Source of the DNA: Clostridia bacterium
GTDB lineage: Bacteria; Bacillota; Clostridia; Oscillospirales; CAG-272
Direction of reading: 5' to 3'
Assembly (NCBI GenBank): GCA_017452895.1
Contig: JAFTLE010000007.1
Location: 1-55,623 of the forward strand
DNA: 55,623 nt
Shown here: piece after piece, positions 9,063-47,792 of the stretch
Layout: each line of letters starts with the position of its first letter
Numbering within the stretch: position 1 is the stretch's first letter
Position numbers and translations under genes: made by a program
Notes under the pieces: model-generated
The model's database searches: none
Seen by the model: the letters and a program-made list of their open reading frames with translations, nothing else
Told to the model about the DNA's origin: nothing

Positions 9063-9215
9063 GAGAAAAAAGAAAAATACTGTTTACATTTTCTCGTTAT
9101 TTTAACTTTTCCTTTACATTTTTGGTTTTGTAAATTTTTATTTACATTTATTTTTCTTTTTCCTGCGAAAAAATGAATTTTTTATAAATTTTTTGTGATA
9201 TTTTTTTTGAAAACC

Positions 9216-9282
9216 TGTTGAAAACTTGCTTTTCTTATGATATACTCTATAATGTATTAATATATTATATAAGTTATCCACA
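9216..9282 (+). promoter_or_regulatory. dnaA promoter region with DnaA box
   Basis: TATAAT at 9248-9253; perfect TTATCCACA at 9274-9282 next to the RBS; degenerate box TGTTGAAAA at 9216-9224. Confidence 0.75.
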
Positions 9283-15429: not shown

Positions 15430-17985
15430 ATGAGTAAACATATCAAAGTATACGAAAGCGATAATATAGAATTTCCCGAGCAGAAGATCGAAGGGCGGAA
15501 TATGGAGCGGGAGATTAAAAACTCCTTCATAGAATATTCCATGAGCGTTATTACCAGCCGTGCCCTTCCCGACGTCAGGGACGGTATGAAGCCGGGTCAG
15601 CGCCGTATCCTCTATGCAATGTACGAGGATCATCTGACCTACGATAAGCCCTTCCGTAAGTCGGCAACGACGGTCGGTAACGTGCTCGGTCGTTACCATC
15701 CCCACGGCGATGCCGCCGTCTATCAAACGATGGTACGTATGGCACAGTCCTTCTCTCTCCGTTACCCCTTGGTTGAGGGACACGGTAACTTCGGTAACAT
15801 TGACGGCGACGGTGCCGCCGCCTACCGTTATACTGAGGCAAGGCTTGCAAAGCTCGCCGACCAGATGATGGTCGATATCGAGAAAAACGTTGTTGAATTC
15901 GTACCGAACTTCGACAACAGCCGTAAGGAGCCCGTTGTGCTTCCCTCGCGCTTCCCAAACCTGCTTGTTAACGGCTCTGTGGGTATTGCCGTCGGTATGG
16001 CAACGAACATTCCCCCGCACAATTTGAACGAGGTCGTTGACGGCATTGTTTACCGTATGGAGAATCCCGAATGCTCGGTTGCCGAGCTGATGGAATATAT
16101 CAAGGGTCCCGACTTCCCGACCGCGGGCATCATCTACGGCTCGCGCGGAATGTACGATGCCTACACCACGGGTCGCGGCCGCGTAATCGTGCGCGCGCGT
16201 GCGAGGGTGGAGGAGGAGCATCGCCGCATCGTCGTGACCGAGATTCCCTATCAGGTCAACAAGAGCATGCTCGTTGAGTCGATTGCAAATCTTGCAAGAG
16301 ATAAGAAGATCGAGGGCATTACCGACGTCCGTGATGAGAGCGGCCGTATCGGTATGCGTATCGTGATTGAATACAAGCGCGACGCAAACGGAGAGGTCAT
16401 TCTCAATCAGCTCTACAAATACACGCAGATGCAGGATACCTGCGCCGTGAATATGCTGGCGCTGGTCGGCGGTGAGCCGAAGATTCTCTCGCTTCCCGAG
16501 ATCCTCGACCACTATATCACCTATCAGAAGCAGATCATCGTCAACCGCGTCAAGTTCGACCTTGACCGCGCCCGCCGTGAGATGCATATCTTCGAGGGCT
16601 ACAAGATCGCGCTCGATCATATCGACGAGATCATTGAGATCATCAAGCGCAGTGACTCGATCCCCACGGCAAAGGCAAACCTGATGGAAAAATTCGGGCT
16701 TTCGGATGCGCAGGCGCAGGCGATCGTCGAAATGACACTCGGCCGCCTTTCGGGTCTTGAAAGACAGAAGATCGAGGATCGCCTTCTGAGGCTGACCGAG
16801 ACCGTAGCAGAGCTTGAAAGCATTCTGGCAACCGAGGGAAGGGTTGCGGAGATCCTCATCGGGGAGCTGCAGGAGATCAAGCGCAAGTTTGGCGACGACC
16901 GACTGACCGAGCTTGTTGAGGCAACCGAGGAGATCGATATTGAGGATCTGATTGAGCGCCACACCTGTGTGATTACGATGTCGCACGCAGGCTACATTAA
17001 GCGTCAGCCTGCGAAGACCTATTCGGCACAGCACCGCGGCGGTAAGGGTATCATCGGTATGTCCACGAAGGAGGAGGACTACGTTGAAAACGTCCTCGTT
17101 GCCAACAGTCATTCCTTCTTAATGCTCTTTACAAACCTCGGTAAGGTCTATGCGAAGAAGGTTTACAGGATTCCCGAGGCGGGTAGAACCGCAAAGGGAA
17201 CCAATATCGTCAACCTTCTCGAGCTTTCCGAGGGTGAAAAGATCACCTCTATCATTCCGATTGATGCCTTCAATGAAAACGAATACCTCACGATGGTCAC
17301 CAAAAAGGGTGTTATTAAGCGCACCGACCTTTCGGCGTTCGCATATCAGCGGAAGGGCGGCAAAATCGCCATCACACTCGATGAGGGAGACGAGCTTCTC
17401 TTCATCTGCCACACGAAGGGGGATCAGGATATCCTGCTTGCAACGCACGACGGTAACGCCGTCCGCTTCTCGGAGTCCGAGGTCCGCTGTATGGGCAGAA
17501 CCGCCCGCGGCGTACGCGGCATCCGCCTGAAGGGAGACGATCACGTCGTCGGCGTTACGCTGGTTGAGGAGAATAAAAAGCTCCTCACGCTCACAGAGGG
17601 CGGCTTCGGTAAGCGCACCGACTTCGACGACTTCCGCACGATGAAGAATCGCGGCGGCGGCGGTGTCACCTGCCACAAGCTCGGCGACAAAACGGGAAAG
17701 CTTGCGTCGATTGCCTCGGTGGAGGAGGACGACGACCTCATGATCATCACCAACGACGGCACGATCATCCGTACCCCCGTTTCGGGCATTCCGACCTATT
17801 CGAGAACGGCGGGCGGCGTTATCGTGATGCGCTTGTCTGAGGGGGCGAGTATCATGACCTTTACAAAGGTCAAGAGCGAAAAGGAGCTGGAGGCAGAGAC
17901 CGAGCAGGCAGAAGCAACGGCGGCGACCGTGACTCCCATCGCAGAGCTACCCGAAACCGAGGAAAACGACAATGAACAAGCGTAA
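15430..17985 (+). CDS. gyrA: DNA gyrase subunit A
   Basis: RALPDVRDGMKP, HPHGD, RYTE catalytic Tyr, GyrA-box QHRGGKG, beta-pinwheel repeats and acidic tail. Confidence 0.98.
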   Translation: MSKHIKVYESDNIEFPEQKIEGRNMEREIKNSFIEYSMSVITSRALPDVRDGMKPGQRRILYAMYEDHLTYDKPFRKSATTVGNVLGRYHPHGDAAVYQTMVRMAQSFSLRYPLVEGHGNFGNIDGDGAAAYRYTEARLAKLADQMMVDIEKNVVEFVPNFDNSRKEPVVLPSRFPNLLVNGSVGIAVGMATNIPPHNLNEVVDGIVYRMENPECSVAELMEYIKGPDFPTAGIIYGSRGMYDAYTTGRGRVIVRARARVEEEHRRIVVTEIPYQVNKSMLVESIANLARDKKIEGITDVRDESGRIGMRIVIEYKRDANGEVILNQLYKYTQMQDTCAVNMLALVGGEPKILSLPEILDHYITYQKQIIVNRVKFDLDRARREMHIFEGYKIALDHIDEIIEIIKRSDSIPTAKANLMEKFGLSDAQAQAIVEMTLGRLSGLERQKIEDRLLRLTETVAELESILATEGRVAEILIGELQEIKRKFGDDRLTELVEATEEIDIEDLIERHTCVITMSHAGYIKRQPAKTYSAQHRGGKGIIGMSTKEEDYVENVLVANSHSFLMLFTNLGKVYAKKVYRIPEAGRTAKGTNIVNLLELSEGEKITSIIPIDAFNENEYLTMVTKKGVIKRTDLSAFAYQRKGGKIAITLDEGDELLFICHTKGDQDILLATHDGNAVRFSESEVRCMGRTARGVRGIRLKGDDHVVGVTLVEENKKLLTLTEGGFGKRTDFDDFRTMKNRGGGGVTCHKLGDKTGKLASIASVEEDDDLMIITNDGTIIRTPVSGIPTYSRTAGGVIVMRLSEGASIMTFTKVKSEKELEAETEQAEATAATVTPIAELPETEENDNEQA

Positions 17986-18595
17986 ATTTGTAAGGTTTGC
18001 TTGTCTTTTGCTAATTTTGGTTTGCATTTTTTCTCTCTTTTCATGCGGTGCTGACCTTTCGGATGAGGATGCGGCCGCTCGCGCGGCGCAGCTTCTTGAG
18101 CAATCGGTGCTGATTAACCGCATCTATTTTGGCTCGGGCATCCCCGCCGACCCTACGGTGATCGGGGACGCGGCGTACAAGAGAGCCGATCCCGCATTCC
18201 TTGAGGCACACGGCTTTTACAGCGTCGAGCAGCTGAAGAAAAAGACTCTCGAGGTCTACACGAGCTACTGCGCGGAGGATATCTTCTTCAATATCTTCAC
18301 CGCGGTGGTGGGTGTCAGCGACAGCCGCGCGCGCTACCGTGACGATTCGGGAACGCTCTACGTCGACACGAAGGCAGAGGTGCTTTACGCCGACCGCGTT
18401 GAGTTTGATACCGACAGCATCAAGATCGAAAAGAGCAAGAAAAACGTCATCTACTTCACCGTCGATATGACGGTATATAGTGCCGACGAGAGTAAAAGTC
18501 AGACCCTGAAGGAGCAGAGCTTCTCGCTCCGATCGGAAAACGGCGTCTGGCTGCTTGACACACCGACCTACGCCGTCTACTTCGACGGCCGCTGA
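17972..18595 (+). CDS. Lipoprotein, possibly IseA (DL-endopeptidase inhibitor)-like
   Basis: Basic N-terminus, hydrophobic core and LFSC lipobox; ends ...ENGVWLLD; overlaps the gyrA stop. The IseA resemblance is by eye only. Confidence 0.6.
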   Translation: MNKRKFVRFACLLLILVCIFSLFSCGADLSDEDAAARAAQLLEQSVLINRIYFGSGIPADPTVIGDAAYKRADPAFLEAHGFYSVEQLKKKTLEVYTSYCAEDIFFNIFTAVVGVSDSRARYRDDSGTLYVDTKAEVLYADRVEFDTDSIKIEKSKKNVIYFTVDMTVYSADESKSQTLKEQSFSLRSENGVWLLDTPTYAVYFDGR

Positions 18596-18653
18596 AAAGC
18601 CCTATTAGATTCGTATATAAAAAAGAAAAACAAAGAAAAAGGTGGAAAAAAGT

Positions 18654-19055
18654 ATGGAATTTTCAAAAAAGATGATTCTGCTTCGCAAGCAGAACGGCTA
18701 CACGCAGGAGACCTTTGCCGAGGAGATCGGTGTTTCGCGTCAGTCGGTTTATAAGTGGGAGGCAGGTCAGGCGTATCCCGAGGTCGAGAAGCTGATCAAA
18801 ATCGGCAGGGTTCTCGGCATCAAGATCGACGATCTTTTGAACGACGAGTACGTCGTTGAGGCAGCACCCGCCGCACCCCGAGCAAAGCGCGTGAAGAAGG
18901 CCGAGGAGGTCGTAGAGGTCCCCGTTGCAGAGGAGCCCGTCGCGGTAGCCGAGGTGGCACCCGCGCCCGTAGCCGAGGAAGCTCCCGTTCAGCAGGTTGA
19001 GCAAGCACCCGCCGTAAAGAAGGGCTTCTTCAGCAGAATCTTCGGCGGTAGATAA
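18654..19055 (+). CDS. XRE-family HTH protein with A/E/V/P-rich linker and C-terminal amphipathic helix
   Basis: LRKQNGYTQETFAEEIGVSRQSVYKWEAG HTH; tail KKGFFSRIFGGR. Confidence 0.85.
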   Translation: MEFSKKMILLRKQNGYTQETFAEEIGVSRQSVYKWEAGQAYPEVEKLIKIGRVLGIKIDDLLNDEYVVEAAPAAPRAKRVKKAEEVVEVPVAEEPVAVAEVAPAPVAEEAPVQQVEQAPAVKKGFFSRIFGGR

Positions 19056-19085
19056 AAACATAAAAGCGCAAAAAAGAAAAGTCCC

Positions 19086-19115
19086 GTATATTTTTCCGTT
19101 TTTTGGCACATACTG
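19086..19115 (+). promoter_or_regulatory. Putative forespore sigma-F/G promoter
   Basis: GTATA-N15-GCACATACTG, same design as the spoVA upstream element. Confidence 0.45.
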
Positions 19116-19231
19116 GTAGAGGTGGTGCTACAGCGTCTCGCAGAATTTCCGACGGGTTCTGCAAAGCGGCGCTCTCAGCACCCGCGTACATACACGGCGA
19201 AATGCCGTATCACTTGCAAAACGGAGGACGT

Positions 19232-19507
19232 ATGGTTCGCGGTTGTCACAGACGGGTGGTTTTTTTGCGCACCAAGGACAGCAGATTTTTTGAAGAGGCG
19301 TGCTTTTTTCTGCGGGAGGATCTCCCTCCCGCGGAAGGATCTGCCGATATGGTTGATGAGGCAAATCGCATCGTGCGGGAGAGCCTCCTTTCGGGATACA
19401 CGGTATCCGCTCCCGCGCCGATGCGGCGCACCGTTGGGGGACTGTTATTTTCGATCGGGCTGTTGGCGGGCGTTTTACTGACCGTCCTGTTTTTCTGCGC
19501 CCTTTGA
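19232..19507 (+). CDS. Hypothetical protein with C-terminal TM helix
   Basis: GGAGG RBS before ATG 19232; MVRGCHRRVVFLRTKDSRFFEEACFFL; hydrophobic tail. Confidence 0.7.
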   Translation: MVRGCHRRVVFLRTKDSRFFEEACFFLREDLPPAEGSADMVDEANRIVRESLLSGYTVSAPAPMRRTVGGLLFSIGLLAGVLLTVLFFCAL

Positions 19508-19575
19508 CGGAAATAAAGATGATGAAGCTTTCAATCGGGCTTTTGCCCGATTTGTTTTGAATGGAGAATATATAT

Positions 19576-21255
19576 ATGGCTAAAAAAACAAAGAATACGC
19601 AGCCCCTGCGGATCATTTCACTTGGCGGCTTGCAGGAGATCGGTAAAAATATCACCGTTCTCGAATACGGAAACGATATTCTGGTCATTGACTGCGGACT
19701 TGCGTTTCCCGACGATGAGATGCTTGGTGTTGACCTTGTCATTCCCGACGTCGATTATCTTGAAAAAAACGCGGATCGCATCCGCGCCGTTCTTTTAACG
19801 CACGGGCATGAGGATCATATCGGTGCCCTTCCCTACGTATTGAAAAAAATCAACCCGCCGATCTACGGCACGCGCCTGACGCTCGGCATTCTGAAAAATA
19901 AGCTTGAGGAATTCCGCTATGAAAAAAAACCGGACCTTCATACGGTCGAGGCAGGCAGCATTCTGAATTTCGGTGTCTTCCGTGCGGAATTCATTCACGT
20001 GAATCATTCGATCGCCGATGCCTGCTGTATCGCGATCAAAACGCCGCTCGGCACGGTACTGCATACGGGCGACTTCAAGCTTGACGTCTCCCCGATCGAC
20101 GGACAGATGATGGACATCGCGCGGCTCGGACAGCTTGGCAACGACGGTGTACTTCTGATGCTTGGAGAATCGACGAATGCCGAACGTCCGGGCTTCACTC
20201 CCTCGGAGCGGAAGGTCGGCAGCTCGCTTGAGCAGATCTTTATGGCAAACCCCGACAACCGCATCATCATCGCAACCTTCTCCTCGAATGTGCACAGAGT
20301 TCAGCAGATCGTTGACGCATCGGCGCGCCACGGGCGTAAGGTCGCGGTGATCGGCCGCAGTATGCAGAATGTGGTCGGTGCGGCGGTCGAGCTTGGCTAT
20401 ATGAAGGTGCCCGACGGCGTGTTGATCGATATTTCGGAGATCCGCCGCTTCCGTGACGAGGAGCTGACGCTCATCACCACGGGCAGTCAGGGGGAGCCGA
20501 TGAGTGCGCTCTACCGCATCGCCTTCGCGGAGCACGATAAGGTCAAGCTCCGCCCGAAGGATCTCGTCATCCTCAGCTCCTCCCCGATTCCCGGCAACGA
20601 GAAGCTGGTCGGTAAGATCGTCAACGCCCTTGTCAAAAACGGCATCCGCGTGGTCAACGACTCGGCGGCAGACGTCCACGTATCAGGTCACGCCTGTCAG
20701 GAGGAGCTGAAGCTGATGCTCGCGCTGATCCGCCCCAAGTATTTTATGCCGATCCACGGCGAATACCGCCATCTTTACGCGCATAAGGCACTTGCCGAGT
20801 TTATGGGTATTGCGCCCGAAAACGTCTTCGTTTCCGAGATTGGAAGGGTGCTCGAGATTGACAAAAAGGGCGCTCGCTTCAACGGCAGCGTGCCTGCCGG
20901 CAAAATCCTCGTTGACGGCTCGGGTGTTGGCGATGTCGGAAGCGTTGTTCTGCGCGACCGCAAGCATCTGTCGCAGGACGGCCTCATCGTCGTGGTTGCC
21001 ACGGTCGATCTTCAGGACATGACCGTGCTTTCGGGACCCGACATCATCTCGCGCGGCTTTGTCTACGTGCGTGAGTCGGAGGAGATGATGGAGGAGGCGC
21101 GCGCCCGCGCGGGCCGCGCACTTGAGGAGGCGCTTGCCGACGGCACGACCGATTGGATGCAGCTCAAAAACGCGGTCAGAGAGGCACTTTCGAAGTACTT
21201 CTTCAACAAGACCAAGCGCAAGCCGATGATCCTACCCGTTATTATGAACGTTTAA
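19576..21255 (+). CDS. rnj: Ribonuclease J
   Basis: LGGLQEIGKN, THGHEDHIG, HTGDFK, ESTN, GSQGEP, HVSGH, PIHGE. Confidence 0.97.
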   Translation: MAKKTKNTQPLRIISLGGLQEIGKNITVLEYGNDILVIDCGLAFPDDEMLGVDLVIPDVDYLEKNADRIRAVLLTHGHEDHIGALPYVLKKINPPIYGTRLTLGILKNKLEEFRYEKKPDLHTVEAGSILNFGVFRAEFIHVNHSIADACCIAIKTPLGTVLHTGDFKLDVSPIDGQMMDIARLGQLGNDGVLLMLGESTNAERPGFTPSERKVGSSLEQIFMANPDNRIIIATFSSNVHRVQQIVDASARHGRKVAVIGRSMQNVVGAAVELGYMKVPDGVLIDISEIRRFRDEELTLITTGSQGEPMSALYRIAFAEHDKVKLRPKDLVILSSSPIPGNEKLVGKIVNALVKNGIRVVNDSAADVHVSGHACQEELKLMLALIRPKYFMPIHGEYRHLYAHKALAEFMGIAPENVFVSEIGRVLEIDKKGARFNGSVPAGKILVDGSGVGDVGSVVLRDRKHLSQDGLIVVVATVDLQDMTVLSGPDIISRGFVYVRESEEMMEEARARAGRALEEALADGTTDWMQLKNAVREALSKYFFNKTKRKPMILPVIMNV

Positions 21256-21278
21256 TTTGGCAAATCATTTGATAAGAG

Positions 21279-21312
21279 AAGGCTGTCTCAAACCCGGTTT
21301 GAGACAGCCTTT
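21279..21312 (+). terminator. Intrinsic terminator, member of a GGCTGTCTCAAA palindrome family
   Basis: GGCTGTCTCAAA-CCCGG-TTTGAGACAGCC followed by a T tract. Confidence 0.8.
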
Positions 21313-21404
21313 TGATATAGAAAACAAAAAAGAGGAAACATCTGTACTGTTTATCGGACACATCCTTCGATATACTTTAAGTGAAAAGGATGGGAGGTGA
21401 CCGA

Positions 21405-22608: not shown

Positions 22609-23505
22609 TCAAAGCTCGTTGTTGAAGTCCTTGCCGCAGATCTGTGAGAGCAGGATCTCGAGGTCCTCGTTGTCCTCGTAGAAGATGGTAACCGATTGCT
22701 TACCCTTCTTTGCAGAGATCTTGACCTTTCTGCCAAGATTGCGCATCATACGGCTTTCAAGCTCCGCCACGTAATCGATTTGCAGGGGCTTTGCCTCGGC
22801 TTCCGCCTCGGTGTCCTTCTCTGCCTTCGCCTTGCGTGCGAGGTGTTTTCTGACCTCATCCTCAAGCGTACGGACCGACCATTCGTTTTCCGCGGTCTTC
22901 TCTGCCAGAAGGAGCATATCTTCCTTTTCGCGCAGAGAAAGCAGGGTGCGGGCGTGTCCTGCGGAGAGCGTTCCGTCCGCTACCAGACCCAGAAGCTCCT
23001 TCGGAAGCTCCAAAAGGCGCATAAAATTAGCAATCGCACTGCGGCTCTTGCCGATTTTCTGCGAAATTTCCTCCTGCGTCATATGATATTCCTCCGCAAG
23101 TGAGCGATATGCCATCGCTTCCTCAAGCGGATTGAGATCCTCGCGCTGAATATTCTCGATCAGGGCGATCTGCGCCACCTTCTGCTCATCGCCGTCCACG
23201 ATTACAACGGGAACTTCGGTCAGCCCCGCCATCTTGGAGGCGCGCCAACGGCGCTCCCCTGCCACGATCTGATAACGGTCGTCAATCAGGTTGCGAACGA
23301 GGATCGGCTGCAACACGCCGTGTACGGCAATCGAATCAGCAAGCTGCGAAAGCGCCTCTGTATCAAAGTTTTTGCGGGGTTGTCCCGCCTTAGGCTCGAT
23401 TTGATTGATGCGAAGGGTCTTTACCCCTTCGTTTTCCTGCGTTTCCAACGCATTTTCAAGGAAAATGGCGTCAATACCGCGTCCAAGTGCAGAATTTTTC
23501 TTCAT
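22609..23505 (-). CDS. parB: Chromosome partitioning protein ParB/Spo0J
   Basis: LGRGIDAI, QPRKNFD, GERRWRAS CTPase motif, ENIQREDL, HTH GKSRSAIAN. Confidence 0.96.
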   Translation of the reverse strand: MKKNSALGRGIDAIFLENALETQENEGVKTLRINQIEPKAGQPRKNFDTEALSQLADSIAVHGVLQPILVRNLIDDRYQIVAGERRWRASKMAGLTEVPVVIVDGDEQKVAQIALIENIQREDLNPLEEAMAYRSLAEEYHMTQEEISQKIGKSRSAIANFMRLLELPKELLGLVADGTLSAGHARTLLSLREKEDMLLLAEKTAENEWSVRTLEDEVRKHLARKAKAEKDTEAEAEAKPLQIDYVAELESRMMRNLGRKVKISAKKGKQSVTIFYEDNEDLEILLSQICGKDFNNEL

Positions 23506-23526: not shown

Positions 23527-23542
23527 TGTTTCACGTGAAACG
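23527..23542. promoter_or_regulatory. parS site between parA and parB
   Basis: TGTTTCACGTGAAACG, 15/16 match to the consensus. Confidence 0.85.
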
Positions 23543-24304
23543 TTAGATCCGCATTAAAATTTCCTTGGCAACGGCCTGATATTCAAGCGCACCCTTGTTA
23601 TAGCGCGCGTAATAGCAGATCGGCTTGCCGAAGCTCGGTGCCTCACTCAGCTTGACCGAGCGTGAAATCTCGTTTTTAAAAAGCTTTTCAGTATAGTATT
23701 TGGCTATTTCTTCCTTAACCTGCTTAGTCAGGAGCAGTTGCTTGTTGTACATCGTCAAAAGAATGCCCGTTATATCGAGATTGGGGTTATAAAGCTGGCG
23801 CACCTTACGGACGGTGATCATCAGCTGCGAAAGCCCCTCAAGCGCGTAATACTCACATTGCATCGGGATAATGATGCCGTCGGATGCCGCAAGTGCGTTG
23901 ACGGTCAGAAGCCCGAGTGCGGGCGGACAGTCGATAAAGATGTAATCATAGTCCCCCAAAAGCGGCGCAAGCATCTTTTTGGCACAAAGCGCCTGATTTT
24001 CCATCTGGCTAAGGTCAAGCTCTGCTCCTGCGAGCAGGATATTTGAGGGCATAATGGACAAATTCGTAAATTTCGTCTTATGTACGACCGATTTTGAGTC
24101 GGCTTTTTCAATCAGGGCGTCATAAACCGATACGGTCAGCTTATTTTTCGTAATTCCAAGTCCTGCGGTGGCATTTCCTTGCGGGTCCATGTCCACAAGC
24201 AGCACTCTTTTTCCAAGGCGACCCATTGCGGCGGATATATTGATTGCGGTGGTCGTTTTGCCAACGCCGCCCTTCTGGTTCGCAAATGAAATGATTTTTG
24301 CCAT
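23543..24304 (-). CDS. parA: Chromosome partitioning ATPase ParA/Soj
   Basis: NQKGGVGKTTT, DMDPQGNAT, IDCPP, PMQCEYYALEG, EAPSFG; GGAGGG RBS before ATG 24304. Confidence 0.96.
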   Translation of the reverse strand: MAKIISFANQKGGVGKTTTAINISAAMGRLGKRVLLVDMDPQGNATAGLGITKNKLTVSVYDALIEKADSKSVVHKTKFTNLSIMPSNILLAGAELDLSQMENQALCAKKMLAPLLGDYDYIFIDCPPALGLLTVNALAASDGIIIPMQCEYYALEGLSQLMITVRKVRQLYNPNLDITGILLTMYNKQLLLTKQVKEEIAKYYTEKLFKNEISRSVKLSEAPSFGKPICYYARYNKGALEYQAVAKEILMRI

Positions 24305-24343
24305 AATTCCCTCCGTTTTGTAGAAAAAATTGCTGTTATTAAC

Positions 24344-24373
24344 AGTATACCATAGAATGATACGCCGTGTCAA
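24344..24373 (-). promoter_or_regulatory. Sigma-A promoter of parAB
   Basis: TTGACA-18 bp-TATACT with extended -10 TG. Confidence 0.65.
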
Positions 24374-24400
24374 TCAAAAATTCACGCATTTTTCTCGGAT

Positions 24401-24496
24401 TGTTTCACGTGGAACAAAAATTGACAAATTCCGCAAAAATTGTTTCACGTGAAACAAAGATAGACAGAAAACACTAAGAATGTTTCACGTGAAACA
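24401..24496. repeat. Three parS sites at 40-bp period
   Basis: TGTTTCACGTGGAACA (24401), TGTTTCACGTGAAACA (24441), TGTTTCACGTGAAACA (24481). Confidence 0.95.
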
Positions 24497-28350: not shown

Positions 28351-29961
28351 ATGAAGCTTTTTAAAATCAAACGCTTCTTCAGCGGACGGCGCGGGCGTTA
28401 TCTGCTTTTTGCCGCGGTATCCCTGCTTTCGATCCTTTTGCTCTTGGTCGGAAACATTCTGTTTACACAGCTTGCGAAAAAGAAAAATATCTTCACCGAC
28501 CTTTCCGCAGAGGGGCTTTATACGATGACCGACCTGATGGAGCAAACGATGACGTCGGTCGATCGGGATATCACGGTCACCTTCTGCAGTGACCCCGACG
28601 TGCTGTACGCGAACGAGCGATTGCGCCACGTCTATATCCTGGCGCTTGAGGTTGCAAAGAAGAGCGACCGCATCACGGTCGAGACCGTGAATATCAAAAA
28701 AGAGCCCGAGCGGGTCGAGCGCTTCCGCACCACGGGAGCGAGTGAGATCCTTCCCACCGACGTGATCTTCAGTAGCGGTGCGCGCTACGCGATCTACGGG
28801 CAAAACGCCTTCTGGTCGACCGAATCCGACGGCACGACCGTCTGGGCATTCCAGGGCGAATACAAAATGGCGACTGCCATTCTGACCGTCGCCGCAAGCT
28901 CGCTCCCCTCGGCTTATTTCTCGGTCGGGCACGGAGAGCTGTACTACGATCCCAACAATGCCGACCACCCCGACAACGCATACCTTGAGGAATTCTACCG
29001 ACTCCTCCTTGAAACGGGCATGACCGTCGGTACCGTCGATCTTGAAAAGGAGGACGTCCCAGAGGACTGTGCCCTCCTTCTCGTCATCGAGCCGAAGACG
29101 GATTTTGTAAATGATAGTTTACATAGTCTTTACGAAAAGCCCGCGCTCGAGCGACTTGACCGCTATCTGTGCGGCGAGTACGGCTCGACGATGGTATTCC
29201 TTGACCCCGAGCATACCCTGCCGAATCTCAATGAATTCCTCGGTGAATGGGGACTTGCGGTCGGCGATGGGACCGTTGCCGACACCAAAGGAAGTCTTGA
29301 CCCCGAGGCGGGCGGAAAAACGCTGATCGCCACCTACGGCAACGCAAACGATGAGTCCGCGGTCGGTTACTCCTATTATAGCTCGATTGCAAGCCTCGTC
29401 GCACCGCCGAAGACGATCCTGAAGGACGTCCGTCCGCTCTCGCTCACGTGGGGTGAGGAGGAGAGCTACGAATTCCATTATAACTACATCTCACTTTGCC
29501 GCGGCGTATCTCCCTTCTTCCTTTCAAGCGCGGGGGCACAGGTCGTCAAGGGAAGCGAGACCGTTGCACAGGGAGGTCCCTTCGTGCTGGCGGCGATCTC
29601 AACGCAGATCTATACCGACAGCATTGGGAACGACCATTTTTCCTACGTCTTTACCGCGGGCGGCTCCGAGATGATTTCGAGTGAATTCCTGAAAAACGCC
29701 GCCTACGCCAACCGCGACATCACGGCGTCGGTTCTGCGTGAGATTTCGCGTACCGACGCTTACGCCCCGATGGAGCTTGGCGCCGCAAATCTCAACAACC
29801 AAGAGACCTACGGCGGCAACCGTCTGCAAAGCGATGCCTTTGAGAGCACGGAGGGACTCACGCTCGGTAAGATCGTGCTTTACACCCTGCTCGTTCTCGT
29901 GCCGGCGATCGCCGCACCCGTCGTGTGCATCGTGATCCGCATCCGCCGCCGCTATTTATAA
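28351..29961 (+). CDS. GldG-family ABC auxiliary component (copy 2)
   Basis: DLSAEGLYTM, AYFSVGHGE, VPEDCALLLVIEPKTDF, LPNLNEFLGEWGL, ANRD; C-terminal TM plus RRR. Confidence 0.8.
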   Translation: MKLFKIKRFFSGRRGRYLLFAAVSLLSILLLLVGNILFTQLAKKKNIFTDLSAEGLYTMTDLMEQTMTSVDRDITVTFCSDPDVLYANERLRHVYILALEVAKKSDRITVETVNIKKEPERVERFRTTGASEILPTDVIFSSGARYAIYGQNAFWSTESDGTTVWAFQGEYKMATAILTVAASSLPSAYFSVGHGELYYDPNNADHPDNAYLEEFYRLLLETGMTVGTVDLEKEDVPEDCALLLVIEPKTDFVNDSLHSLYEKPALERLDRYLCGEYGSTMVFLDPEHTLPNLNEFLGEWGLAVGDGTVADTKGSLDPEAGGKTLIATYGNANDESAVGYSYYSSIASLVAPPKTILKDVRPLSLTWGEEESYEFHYNYISLCRGVSPFFLSSAGAQVVKGSETVAQGGPFVLAAISTQIYTDSIGNDHFSYVFTAGGSEMISSEFLKNAAYANRDITASVLREISRTDAYAPMELGAANLNNQETYGGNRLQSDAFESTEGLTLGKIVLYTLLVLVPAIAAPVVCIVIRIRRRYL

Positions 29962-38374: not shown

Positions 38375-38412
38375 GAGGCTTTTGTAAATGAAAGTTTACA
38401 AAAGCCCTATTT
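38375..38412. terminator. Terminator between convergent genes
   Basis: GGCTTTTGTAAA-loop-TTTACAAAAGCC. Confidence 0.7.
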
Positions 38413-44625: not shown

Positions 44626-44722
44626 TTTTCCACAGCTACGAACACTGTCCCACACGGTTTTCCACCGTTTCAACACGAGTTTTCCACATCTTTTTCCGTT
44701 CTGTGGAAAAGGGTGTGGATTA
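44626..44722. promoter_or_regulatory. Cluster of about 7 DnaA-box-like 9-mers
   Basis: TTTTCCACA (44626, 44680), TGTCCCACA (44646), TTTTCCACC (44658), GTTTCAACA (44667), TGTGGAAAA (44702), TGTGGATTA (44714). Confidence 0.8.
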
Positions 44723-47763: not shown

Positions 47764-47792
47764 GGCTGTCTCAAATGAAATTTGAGACAGCC
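47764..47792. repeat. GGCTGTCTCAAA palindrome (second copy)
   Basis: GGCTGTCTCAAA-TGAAA-TTTGAGACAGCC; stem identical to 21281-21309. Confidence 0.8.

Follow-up and report, generated by a model that had tools for sequence, protein, structure and literature searches.

What is a small helix-turn-helix (HTH) protein, encoded beside a replication origin, doing with a C-terminal tail that resembles the membrane-targeting end of MinD? The question is raised by a gene in a 55,623-nucleotide stretch of DNA, referred to here as the window, which is contig JAFTLE010000007.1 of assembly GCA_017452895.1 from a Clostridia bacterium (GTDB order Oscillospirales, CAG-272). The window is contig 84 of this assembly, which comprises 1.41 Mb and is 84% complete. 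The gene codes for a protein of 133 amino acids, designated P0001, and stands last in the order dnaA-dnaN-recF-gyrB-gyrA-lipoprotein-like gene-P0001 gene. An original prediction, made from the letters of the DNA, divided the protein into an XRE-type HTH, a linker rich in A, E, V, and P, and a MinD-like tail, and suggested that it ties DNA to the membrane. In this study, we analyzed the anatomy, orthologs, and genomic setting of P0001. The tail and the position of the gene proved to be conserved throughout a large genus, and the protein is tentatively viewed as a DNA-membrane bridge.

The open reading frame (ORF) of P0001 begins with an ATG at 18654 and ends with a stop codon at 19053-19055. 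The start is supported by orthologs, which begin at an equivalent M-x-F-x-x-K, and AAGGAG-like ribosome-binding sites are found in them at a place equivalent to that of the window (Table 1). Pfam, AlphaFold2, and the alignment of homologs all agree with the anatomy originally proposed, and P0001 is confirmed as a genuine gene whose product has an HTH, a basic patch, a linker, and a tail.

The N-terminal domain matches Pfam HTH_3 over residues 10-61 (E 2.9e-17, 62.9 bits versus a cut-off of 23), and related models of the XRE clan also match. Given an alignment of 45 homologs, AlphaFold2 predicted five helices within residues 3-62 at a predicted local distance difference test (pLDDT) score above 90. 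The Foldseek neighbors of this fold are DNA-bound XRE repressors, namely the DNA-binding domains of ImmR, P22 c2, SinR, and the 434 repressor (root-mean-square deviation 0.8-1.7 Å over about 60 residues); because the HTH domain is small, all of these matches had E > 0.001. Sequence searches of solved structures returned short XRE domains only, and the ESM Atlas returned only unnamed HTH_3 clusters. Invariant positions in the 45-homolog alignment include M1, K6, L10, R11, Q18, R29, Q30, K34, W35, E36, P42, and D59, and the mean pairwise identity of the domain among 73 orthologs is 70%.

A basic patch (family consensus PEKKKxKR) directly follows the HTH, residues 67-90 containing a median of 7 lysines and arginines across the 73 orthologs, and is in turn followed by an acidic spacer. 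No secondary structure was predicted by AlphaFold2 for residues 63-124 (pLDDT 45-63). Charge in P0001 is arranged in blocks of +4 (residues 67-82), -9 (83-121), and +4 (122-133), and the same plus-minus-plus order is kept in orthologs, with medians of -9 for the distal linker and +4 for the last 14 residues. The linker, composed of E (22%), A (18%), V (12%), P (12%), and K (12%) among the 73 orthologs, ranges from 45 to 166 amino acids in length, with only about 17 in a 98-amino-acid ortholog from genome G358. It could not be aligned, and the 45 tail-bearing members have only gaps between HTH, basic patch, and tail. Variants of P0001 from three independent metagenomes carry the linker substitutions P90S, V106I, and E109Q and two silent changes, with HTH and tail unaltered. 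P0001 lacks a transmembrane segment; its highest mean over 19 residues on the Kyte-Doolittle scale is 1.03.

E. coli K-12 MinD, translated from the min locus, ends in EEKKGFLKRLFGG, and the motif given for it in the original prediction (KKGFLKRLFGG) was correct. The tail of P0001 is identical to it, by eye, at 8 of 11 positions and differs at three by conservative or polar substitutions. As in MinD, the pattern K-K-G-F-x-x-R-[LI]-F-G-G lies at the extreme C-terminus. AlphaFold2 predicted a short terminal helix at residues 125-130, and a helical wheel puts F125, F126, I129, and F130 on one face. Within the 45-homolog alignment F130 and G131 are invariant, and G124, F126, and R128 occur in at least 90% of the sequences. 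Homologs had been expected to conserve the tail if it matters, and it was present in all 72 complete orthologous ORFs from other species, despite the unalignable linker. Among the 73 orthologs, the ending is GFFxR[LI]FG[RK][KR] in 50, GGFFGLFRRKK in 7, and another basic-aromatic sequence in 16, five of which hold an aspartate (NLFDVF/NLFDLF). Judged by these sequences, the HTH and the tail are under selection and the linker is not.

The tail was also followed in wider searches, with a rule that the last 14 residues contain two hydrophobic pairs, at least two aromatic, at least two basic, and at most one acidic residue. A word-indexed protein search listed 120 homologs among 205, and 116 of these 120 passed. 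The four failures were P0045 and P0082, which end abruptly, P0086, a variant missed by the rule, and P0102, which has an acidic end. An exhaustive search of representatives clustered at 50% identity gave 33349 matches at E <= 0.001, as expected of an HTH. The best 150 of these included 146 new proteins, 64 of which passed the rule (59 of the 90 with no more than 260 amino acids), with several near-misses; the remaining new proteins are long or multi-HTH and share the HTH domain only.

When 151 genomes of the family were searched at the DNA level for the pattern GFFxRxFG, 27 matches were obtained versus 14 for the reversed control. None outside the window genome was an XRE gene, in a search that was insensitive (it missed both same-genus genomes) and did not include the GGFFGLFRRKK variant. 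In other genera of the family, GFFxR[IL]FG was found at the extreme C-termini of unrelated proteins: a complete DnaJ in two genomes, YabP-family sporulation proteins in two genomes, and a 284-amino-acid protein with no family assignment. One peptide on unrelated proteins argues for lipid binding over docking to a single partner such as the sliding clamp, and the tail looks like a portable membrane tag.

The genomic position of the gene was scanned in one genome per GTDB species, giving 80 loci with flanks of at most 10 kb, each from gut or rumen metagenome-assembled genomes labeled Eubacteriales, Clostridia, Oscillospiraceae, or Ruminococcus. Eight were dropped, since the gene ran off the contig end or was not recovered by the ORF/BLAST filter, leaving 72. 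That homologs keep their place after gyrA was borne out: gyrA lies within 4 kb upstream in 65 of the 72, and each of the other seven has less than 2 kb of upstream sequence. The complete dnaA-dnaN-recF-gyrB-gyrA block precedes the gene in 53 loci, a lipoprotein-like gene is directly upstream in 61, RNase J follows within 1.6 kb in 60, and a parB homolog occurs within 10 kb in 32. GyrA identity to the protein of the window is 59-75% (median 71%), with one locus at 98%, so that the loci compared do not represent near-identical strains. One of the loci, L079 (JAGHTD010000116.1), is a 3.8-kb contig with a Clostridia-type locus in a bin named Candidatus Colimorpha enterica; NCBI taxonomy puts this name in Bacteroidales, and the contig may be mis-binned.

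The orthologs, which range from 98 to 246 amino acids, all belong to one GTDB genus, that of the window genome (designated g1), which is large, diverse, and uncultured. In a sample of 101 g1 genomes from a larger group, 93 matched the family profile at more than 100 bits and two weaker matches were syntenic, tailed orthologs, placing the gene in at least 95 of 101. When 150 further family genomes from 97 genera were searched, more than 100 bits was reached only in the two that belong to g1. None of 20 short candidates (17 taken from the family but outside g1, three from other families) was tailed, and two gave no ORF; many have hydrophobic, transmembrane-like ends. The best matches in an order-wide search of 200 genomes were HTH-only and led to longer XRE proteins with transmembrane helices; they were rejected as orthologs on account of this HTH-only similarity and their transmembrane-like ends. 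Outside g1, 4 of 10 family genomes have the lipoprotein-like gene after gyrA, and no XRE gene stands behind it in the two of these loci with about 1.5 kb of downstream sequence, the other two being too short. The P0001 gene thus seems to have arisen within one large genus, as judged by non-exhaustive sequence searches outside it.

A separate observation from the order-wide search is that proteins consisting of an XRE HTH and one to four transmembrane helices (BcrR-like, about 160-225 amino acids) are very common in the order. Examples are L027, L035, L018, L022, and L029, and two occur on contigs C19 and C70 of the window's own genome, G000 (L002 and L003). Up to 23 HTH matches per genome were found.

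What might such a protein do? The account we prefer, and hold tentatively, is that P0001 bridges DNA and membrane, tethering the chromosome and helping to position or segregate the nucleoid or the origin region. The XRE HTH would contact DNA, aided by the adjoining K/R patch. The acidic, proline-rich linker would be repelled by both DNA and anionic lipid and so form a spacer that is extended and flexible. The last 12 residues would fold on the membrane as a short amphipathic helix, with the flanking lysines and arginines binding anionic head groups. A single MinD-type helix binds membrane weakly, as established for MinD, and stable attachment should therefore need several copies gathered by DNA; clusters of DNA-bound P0001 would then be held reversibly at the inner face of the membrane. 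In this role P0001 would be a functional analog, and not a homolog, of RocS, RicO, and Noc. The gene is near-universal in its genus, co-directional with gyrA, separated by 58 nucleotides from the gene before it, and free of any toxin or prophage partner. These features are housekeeping-like and tip the balance slightly toward a structural tether over a regulator.

A candidate DNA target of P0001 came from a whole-genome screen of perfect 6-N(0-8)-6 inverted repeats. TGTAAA-N6-TTTACA, an 18-bp palindrome, ranked first; the 1.4-Mb genome has 29 perfect copies of it and 56 copies with a single mismatch, distributed across many contigs. It occurs in 37 of 41 g1 genomes (0-47 sites each; reversed control 0-2) versus 15 of 79 genomes of other genera (at most 7; control 0-4). 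The 72 orthologous origin loci (1.18 Mb) contain 19 perfect copies versus 1 for the control. If up to one mismatch is allowed, 15 of 44 loci have a copy in the 350 nucleotides before dnaA (control 4), compared with 0-4 of about 60 before dnaN, recF, gyrB, or rnj. Crude gene calling placed 12 of the 29 sites between genes versus about 3 expected, non-coding DNA being about 11%. Neighbors include glutamate dehydrogenase, nrdD, rpiB, a permease, and dnaA, and share no theme. A -10-like box is found at promoter distance from only 5 of the 29 sites, and about half of the sites are in coding-like sequence. Co-occurrence of palindrome and gene is that of one clade and counts as one event. Genome G358, which has a short tailed ortholog, contains 7 palindromes; 7 are also present in G352, which has no profile match at E <= 1e-20, and this speaks against a link between palindrome and protein. 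From these patterns, the palindrome is a possible target of P0001. A more specific form of the tether, in which an XRE-based, Noc-like coupler binds this palindrome and many weak tails pin loci to the membrane, is unlikely on present evidence.

Several points weigh against a tether. XRE domains are overwhelmingly transcription regulators, and the nearest relatives of P0001 in the same genomes are BcrR-like regulators with XRE and transmembrane segments. The amphipathic moment of the tail is statistically unremarkable for so short a peptide. The 12-mer has a moment of 0.254, the 11-mer one of 0.367, and the core GFFSRIFG one of 0.633, and the value of the 12-mer was reached by 6182 of 10000 shuffles. 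With windows of 8 residues, the median of the best moment is 0.65 for the tail and 0.56 for the linker, the tail being higher in 59 of 73 orthologs. The case for a membrane tail accordingly rests on conservation, composition, and the match to MinD. AlphaFold2 gave no coiled coil or oligomerization domain, and clustering is thus assumed. The surroundings of the origin showed no array of candidate binding sites, and the one palindrome that is enriched is dispersed. The recognition helix is near-identical in 18 orthologs (20 genomes taken) from genomes with anywhere from 0 to 47 palindromes, and palindrome and protein thus do not co-vary. Finally, because all orthologs share one ancestor in g1, their conserved position is largely inherited, and synteny within one genus is weak evidence for a link to the origin.

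About as likely as the tether, and close to the second option of the original prediction (a membrane-sequestered regulator), is that P0001 is a sequence-specific XRE transcription regulator that is gated by the membrane, from which it would be released on a change of potential, charge, or fluidity, or that acts at the membrane like BcrR. The XRE fold and the invariant recognition helix imply a specific DNA target, the closest paralogs carry XRE domains fused to one to four transmembrane helices, which keeps this explanation strong, and the genus-enriched palindrome has the size of an XRE operator and is in excess between genes. However, AlphaFold2 revealed no sensor or dimerization domain, the upstream regions of 73 loci have no conserved operator-like palindrome in common, and a divergent target gene is lacking. 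The palindrome itself helps little, given its co-occurrence within one clade, its indifference to the recognition helix, and the scarcity of sites at promoter distance described above.

It is improbable that P0001 is instead a cytosolic XRE regulator whose C-terminus serves as a degradation tag or as a docking peptide, for example for the sliding clamp, which is encoded four genes upstream. Some ortholog endings are less MinD-like and partly acidic (NLFDVF, SLFDRLF), the gene is within the replication cluster, clamp-binding motifs also end in L-F, and the unexceptional moment would suit a peptide of this kind. Clamp-binding motifs, however, are defined by a glutamine; the consensus of the tail has none and has three to five basic residues flanking it on both sides. 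The 8 of 11 match to MinD and the presence of the same tail on DnaJ and YabP also stand against docking or degradation.

RodZ combines an XRE-like HTH with a basic juxtamembrane stretch and a membrane anchor, and a RodZ-like adaptor, in which the HTH binds a protein such as MreB and the tail replaces the transmembrane helix, would fit a genome with MreB (215.9 bits) and no RodZ_C domain found; it is very improbable, as P0001 has no HTH_25 match (Pfam scan, E <= 0.01) and no transmembrane helix, its DNA-contact-type recognition-helix residues are invariant, and none of 61 family genomes yielded RodZ_C, which is thus missing well beyond the genus that bears the gene. An XRE antitoxin or prophage repressor was rejected, because the setting includes no toxin or prophage and the NCBIfam phage repressor and antitoxin models match far under their cut-offs.

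The features of the window and the related loci are collected in Table 1.

Table 1. Position of the P0001 gene, its parts, and other features discussed in the text
Feature	Position	Strand	Basis or remark
P0001 gene, 133-amino-acid XRE-HTH/amphipathic-tail protein	18654..19055	+	ORF, stop codon included; orthologs in at least 95 of 101 genus genomes
Ribosome-binding site AAAGGTGG	18639..18646	+	Read from sequence, 7 nucleotides 5' of the ATG
XRE (Cro/C1) helix-turn-helix, residues 1-66	18654..18851	+	Pfam HTH_3, AlphaFold2; recognition helix V-S-R-Q-S-V-Y-K-W-E
Basic patch, residues 76-82 (RAKRVKK)	18879..18899	+	Directly after the HTH; family consensus PEKKKxKR
Disordered acidic A/E/V/P-rich spacer, residues 83-121	18900..19016	+	AlphaFold2; net charge -9
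Predicted MinD/RocS-type C-terminal membrane-targeting sequence KKGFFSRIFGGR, residues 122-133	19017..19052	+	MinD match, AlphaFold2, conservation
gyrA	15430..17985	+	Pfam; ends the dnaA-dnaN-recF-gyrB-gyrA block
lipo207, 207-amino-acid lipoprotein-like gene	17972..18595	+	Signal peptide with cysteine; overlaps the gyrA stop by 14 nucleotides
rnj, RNase J gene	19561..21255	+	Pfam; 3' of the P0001 gene
parB	22609-23505	-	The only ParB-like gene of the window
parA	23543-24373	-	Between parS sites
Four parS sites	23527..24496		Sites at 23527, 24401, 24441, 24481; 0.02 expected
Perfect TGTAAA-N6-TTTACA sites	9129-9146, 29106-29123, 38383-38400		Site at 9129 is 163 bp before the dnaA ATG
GFFxR[IL]FG-tailed DnaJ, YabP-family, and 284-amino-acid loci in other genera	L150:379-1536, L151, L154:1494-1781, L162:1488-1757, L145:685-1539		DNA-pattern search

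The gene had been placed at the end of the dnaA-gyrA block and about 5 kb from parS, and the parS sites, which flank parA, were indeed located 4.5-5.4 kb downstream of it. Perfect DnaA boxes are present at 9274 and 10778. The immediate neighbors are gyrA, the lipoprotein-like gene, and RNase J, with no toxin, ImmA-like, or prophage gene among them. The lipoprotein-like protein lipo207 has no Pfam or NCBIfam match, and the interval between it and P0001 contains neither a plus-strand promoter-like site nor a predicted terminator. Upstream regions of the 73 loci share an A/T-rich spacer and the ribosome-binding site, some with a small GC hairpin, and Rfam gave no match in 17900-21400 at E <= 1. 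In metatranscriptome run X7, for which cover is sparse and consists of contigs only, contigs mapped to lipo207, to the spacer preceding rnj, and to rnj itself, and none to the P0001 ORF.

Some observations concern other parts of the window. The 505-nucleotide gap at 19056-19560, before rnj, has no Pfam-matching ORF; one metatranscriptome contig maps to 19211-19434, and a hairpin with a T-run, the only plus-strand hairpin in a scan around the gene, lies at 19533-19552, 9 nucleotides before the rnj ATG. The gap may be the rnj leader. Four DnaA-box-like nonamers (TTTTCCACA three times and TAATCCACA once) are found within 100 bp at 44626-44722, far from dnaA, and may be a DnaA-box cluster. Repeated 14- to 16-mers were considered as origin arrays and rejected as dispersed REP-like elements. 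These comprise GGCTGTCTCAAAT, with 26 copies (an inverted pair at 47764-47792 and 24 other places), and GCGAATAGAATATCAC, with 13 copies.

As regards the Min system, neither the window genome nor five other carriers of the gene, 41 g1 genomes, or 61 family genomes yielded a MinD that exceeds the TIGR01968 cut-off. Weaker MinD-like ATPases (107-199 bits) were present in 8 of 41 g1 genomes versus 34 of 59 genomes of other genera, and all eight g1 genomes with such an ATPase also have the XRE gene. The patchy distribution of the ATPase is suggestive at most, the genomes being non-independent relatives. If the Noc-like version of the tether were true, P0001 would provide origin positioning or nucleoid occlusion in a lineage where 33 of 41 genomes have no MinD-like ATPase.

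More than 90 species of an abundant, uncultured gut lineage keep P0001 as part of their core genes. If the tether holds, short MinD-type tails would be a portable membrane tag in Clostridia, used also by DnaJ and YabP. A caution for annotation follows as well, in that thousands of proteins described as XRE family transcriptional regulators may include membrane-associated ones.

How does P0001 compare with known systems? We found no description of an XRE domain with a MinD-type tail in the open-access literature and bioRxiv main text, the nearest being RocS, RicO, and TubY. MinD itself differs from P0001, which has no deviant Walker A ATPase domain of the ParA/MinD type (Pfam) and would thus have no nucleotide-driven dimerization to switch its membrane affinity. 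Bacillus subtilis Noc is described as binding dispersed palindromic sites and recruiting DNA to the membrane via an amphipathic helix (PMC8429893). Noc, however, is a ParB-like CTPase with an N-terminal helix, whereas P0001 has neither a ParB fold nor a nucleotide switch. BcrR is listed among transmembrane transcription regulators (PMC10269533), in an article whose text contains neither "amphipathic" nor "XRE". BcrR-type proteins resemble P0001 in having an N-terminal XRE HTH at the membrane and are its closest sequence relatives in the same genomes; they differ in having one to four transmembrane helices (best 19-residue Kyte-Doolittle mean above 1.6) where P0001 has none, so that binding by P0001 would be peripheral and reversible. 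TubY, of type III plasmid partition, is reported to have an HTH and a membrane-binding C-terminal region (PMC7762940), but it is plasmid-borne, its C-terminal region is tetrameric, and it belongs to another sequence class.

The closest parallel is with RocS of Streptococcus pneumoniae and RicO of Staphylococcus aureus. Both are small proteins that bridge DNA and membrane, the HTH being N-terminal and a MinD-like amphipathic helix forming the C-terminus, and the P0001 gene, too, is near the origin and the ParB locus. RocS, RicO, and RacA are described as one family with a MerR-type HTH and a coiled coil, to which RocS and RicO add the C-terminal helix (bioRxiv 10.64898/2026.03.06.710092). According to the same source, the DNA-binding arginine and the helix of RicO are both needed for origin positioning, and for RocS and RicO the DNA-binding domain and the amphipathic helix are both reported as required for segregation (bioRxiv 10.64898/2026.03.06.710092; PMC13042908). 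In a nuclear magnetic resonance study of the RocS tail, hydrophobic moments were given as 0.245 for RocS and 0.424 for E. coli MinD, and a lysine-x-glycine kink was described, followed by a short inserted helix (PMC13042908, section 2.1). Beside these moments stand the 0.254 (12-mer) and 0.367 (11-mer) of P0001. The tail of P0001 opens with the same K-K-G and has this kink-then-helix layout, and the MinD-type amphipathic C-terminus that marks the RocS family is recognizable in P0001 at the sequence level only.

The remainder of the protein is different. RocS and RicO have an HTH of the MerR/DUF536 type and P0001 an XRE HTH_3; no MerR/DUF536 match was found in P0001 (Pfam scan, E <= 0.01), and no DUF536 gene was found in the 84% complete window genome. 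Their central coiled coil, which oligomerizes, is replaced in P0001 by a proline-rich, disordered linker (12% proline). P0001 was therefore rejected as a RocS/RicO/RacA homolog, having neither a MerR/DUF536 domain nor a coiled coil. The original comparison with RocS and TubY thus stands for the likeness of an HTH joined to an amphipathic helix and fails for relatedness. The two-ended architecture of P0001, as read from sequence, is convergent with that of RocS and RicO, making it a functional analog at most. HTH proteins with a MinD-like helix (RocS, RicO) have recently been recognized as segregation factors in cocci without a full ParABS or Min system, and all those known belong to the single MerR-type coiled-coil family. 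P0001 shows the same two-ended design, assembled independently from an XRE domain and a disordered, charge-patterned spacer; if it works as proposed, the tether principle is convergent and the coiled coil dispensable to it.

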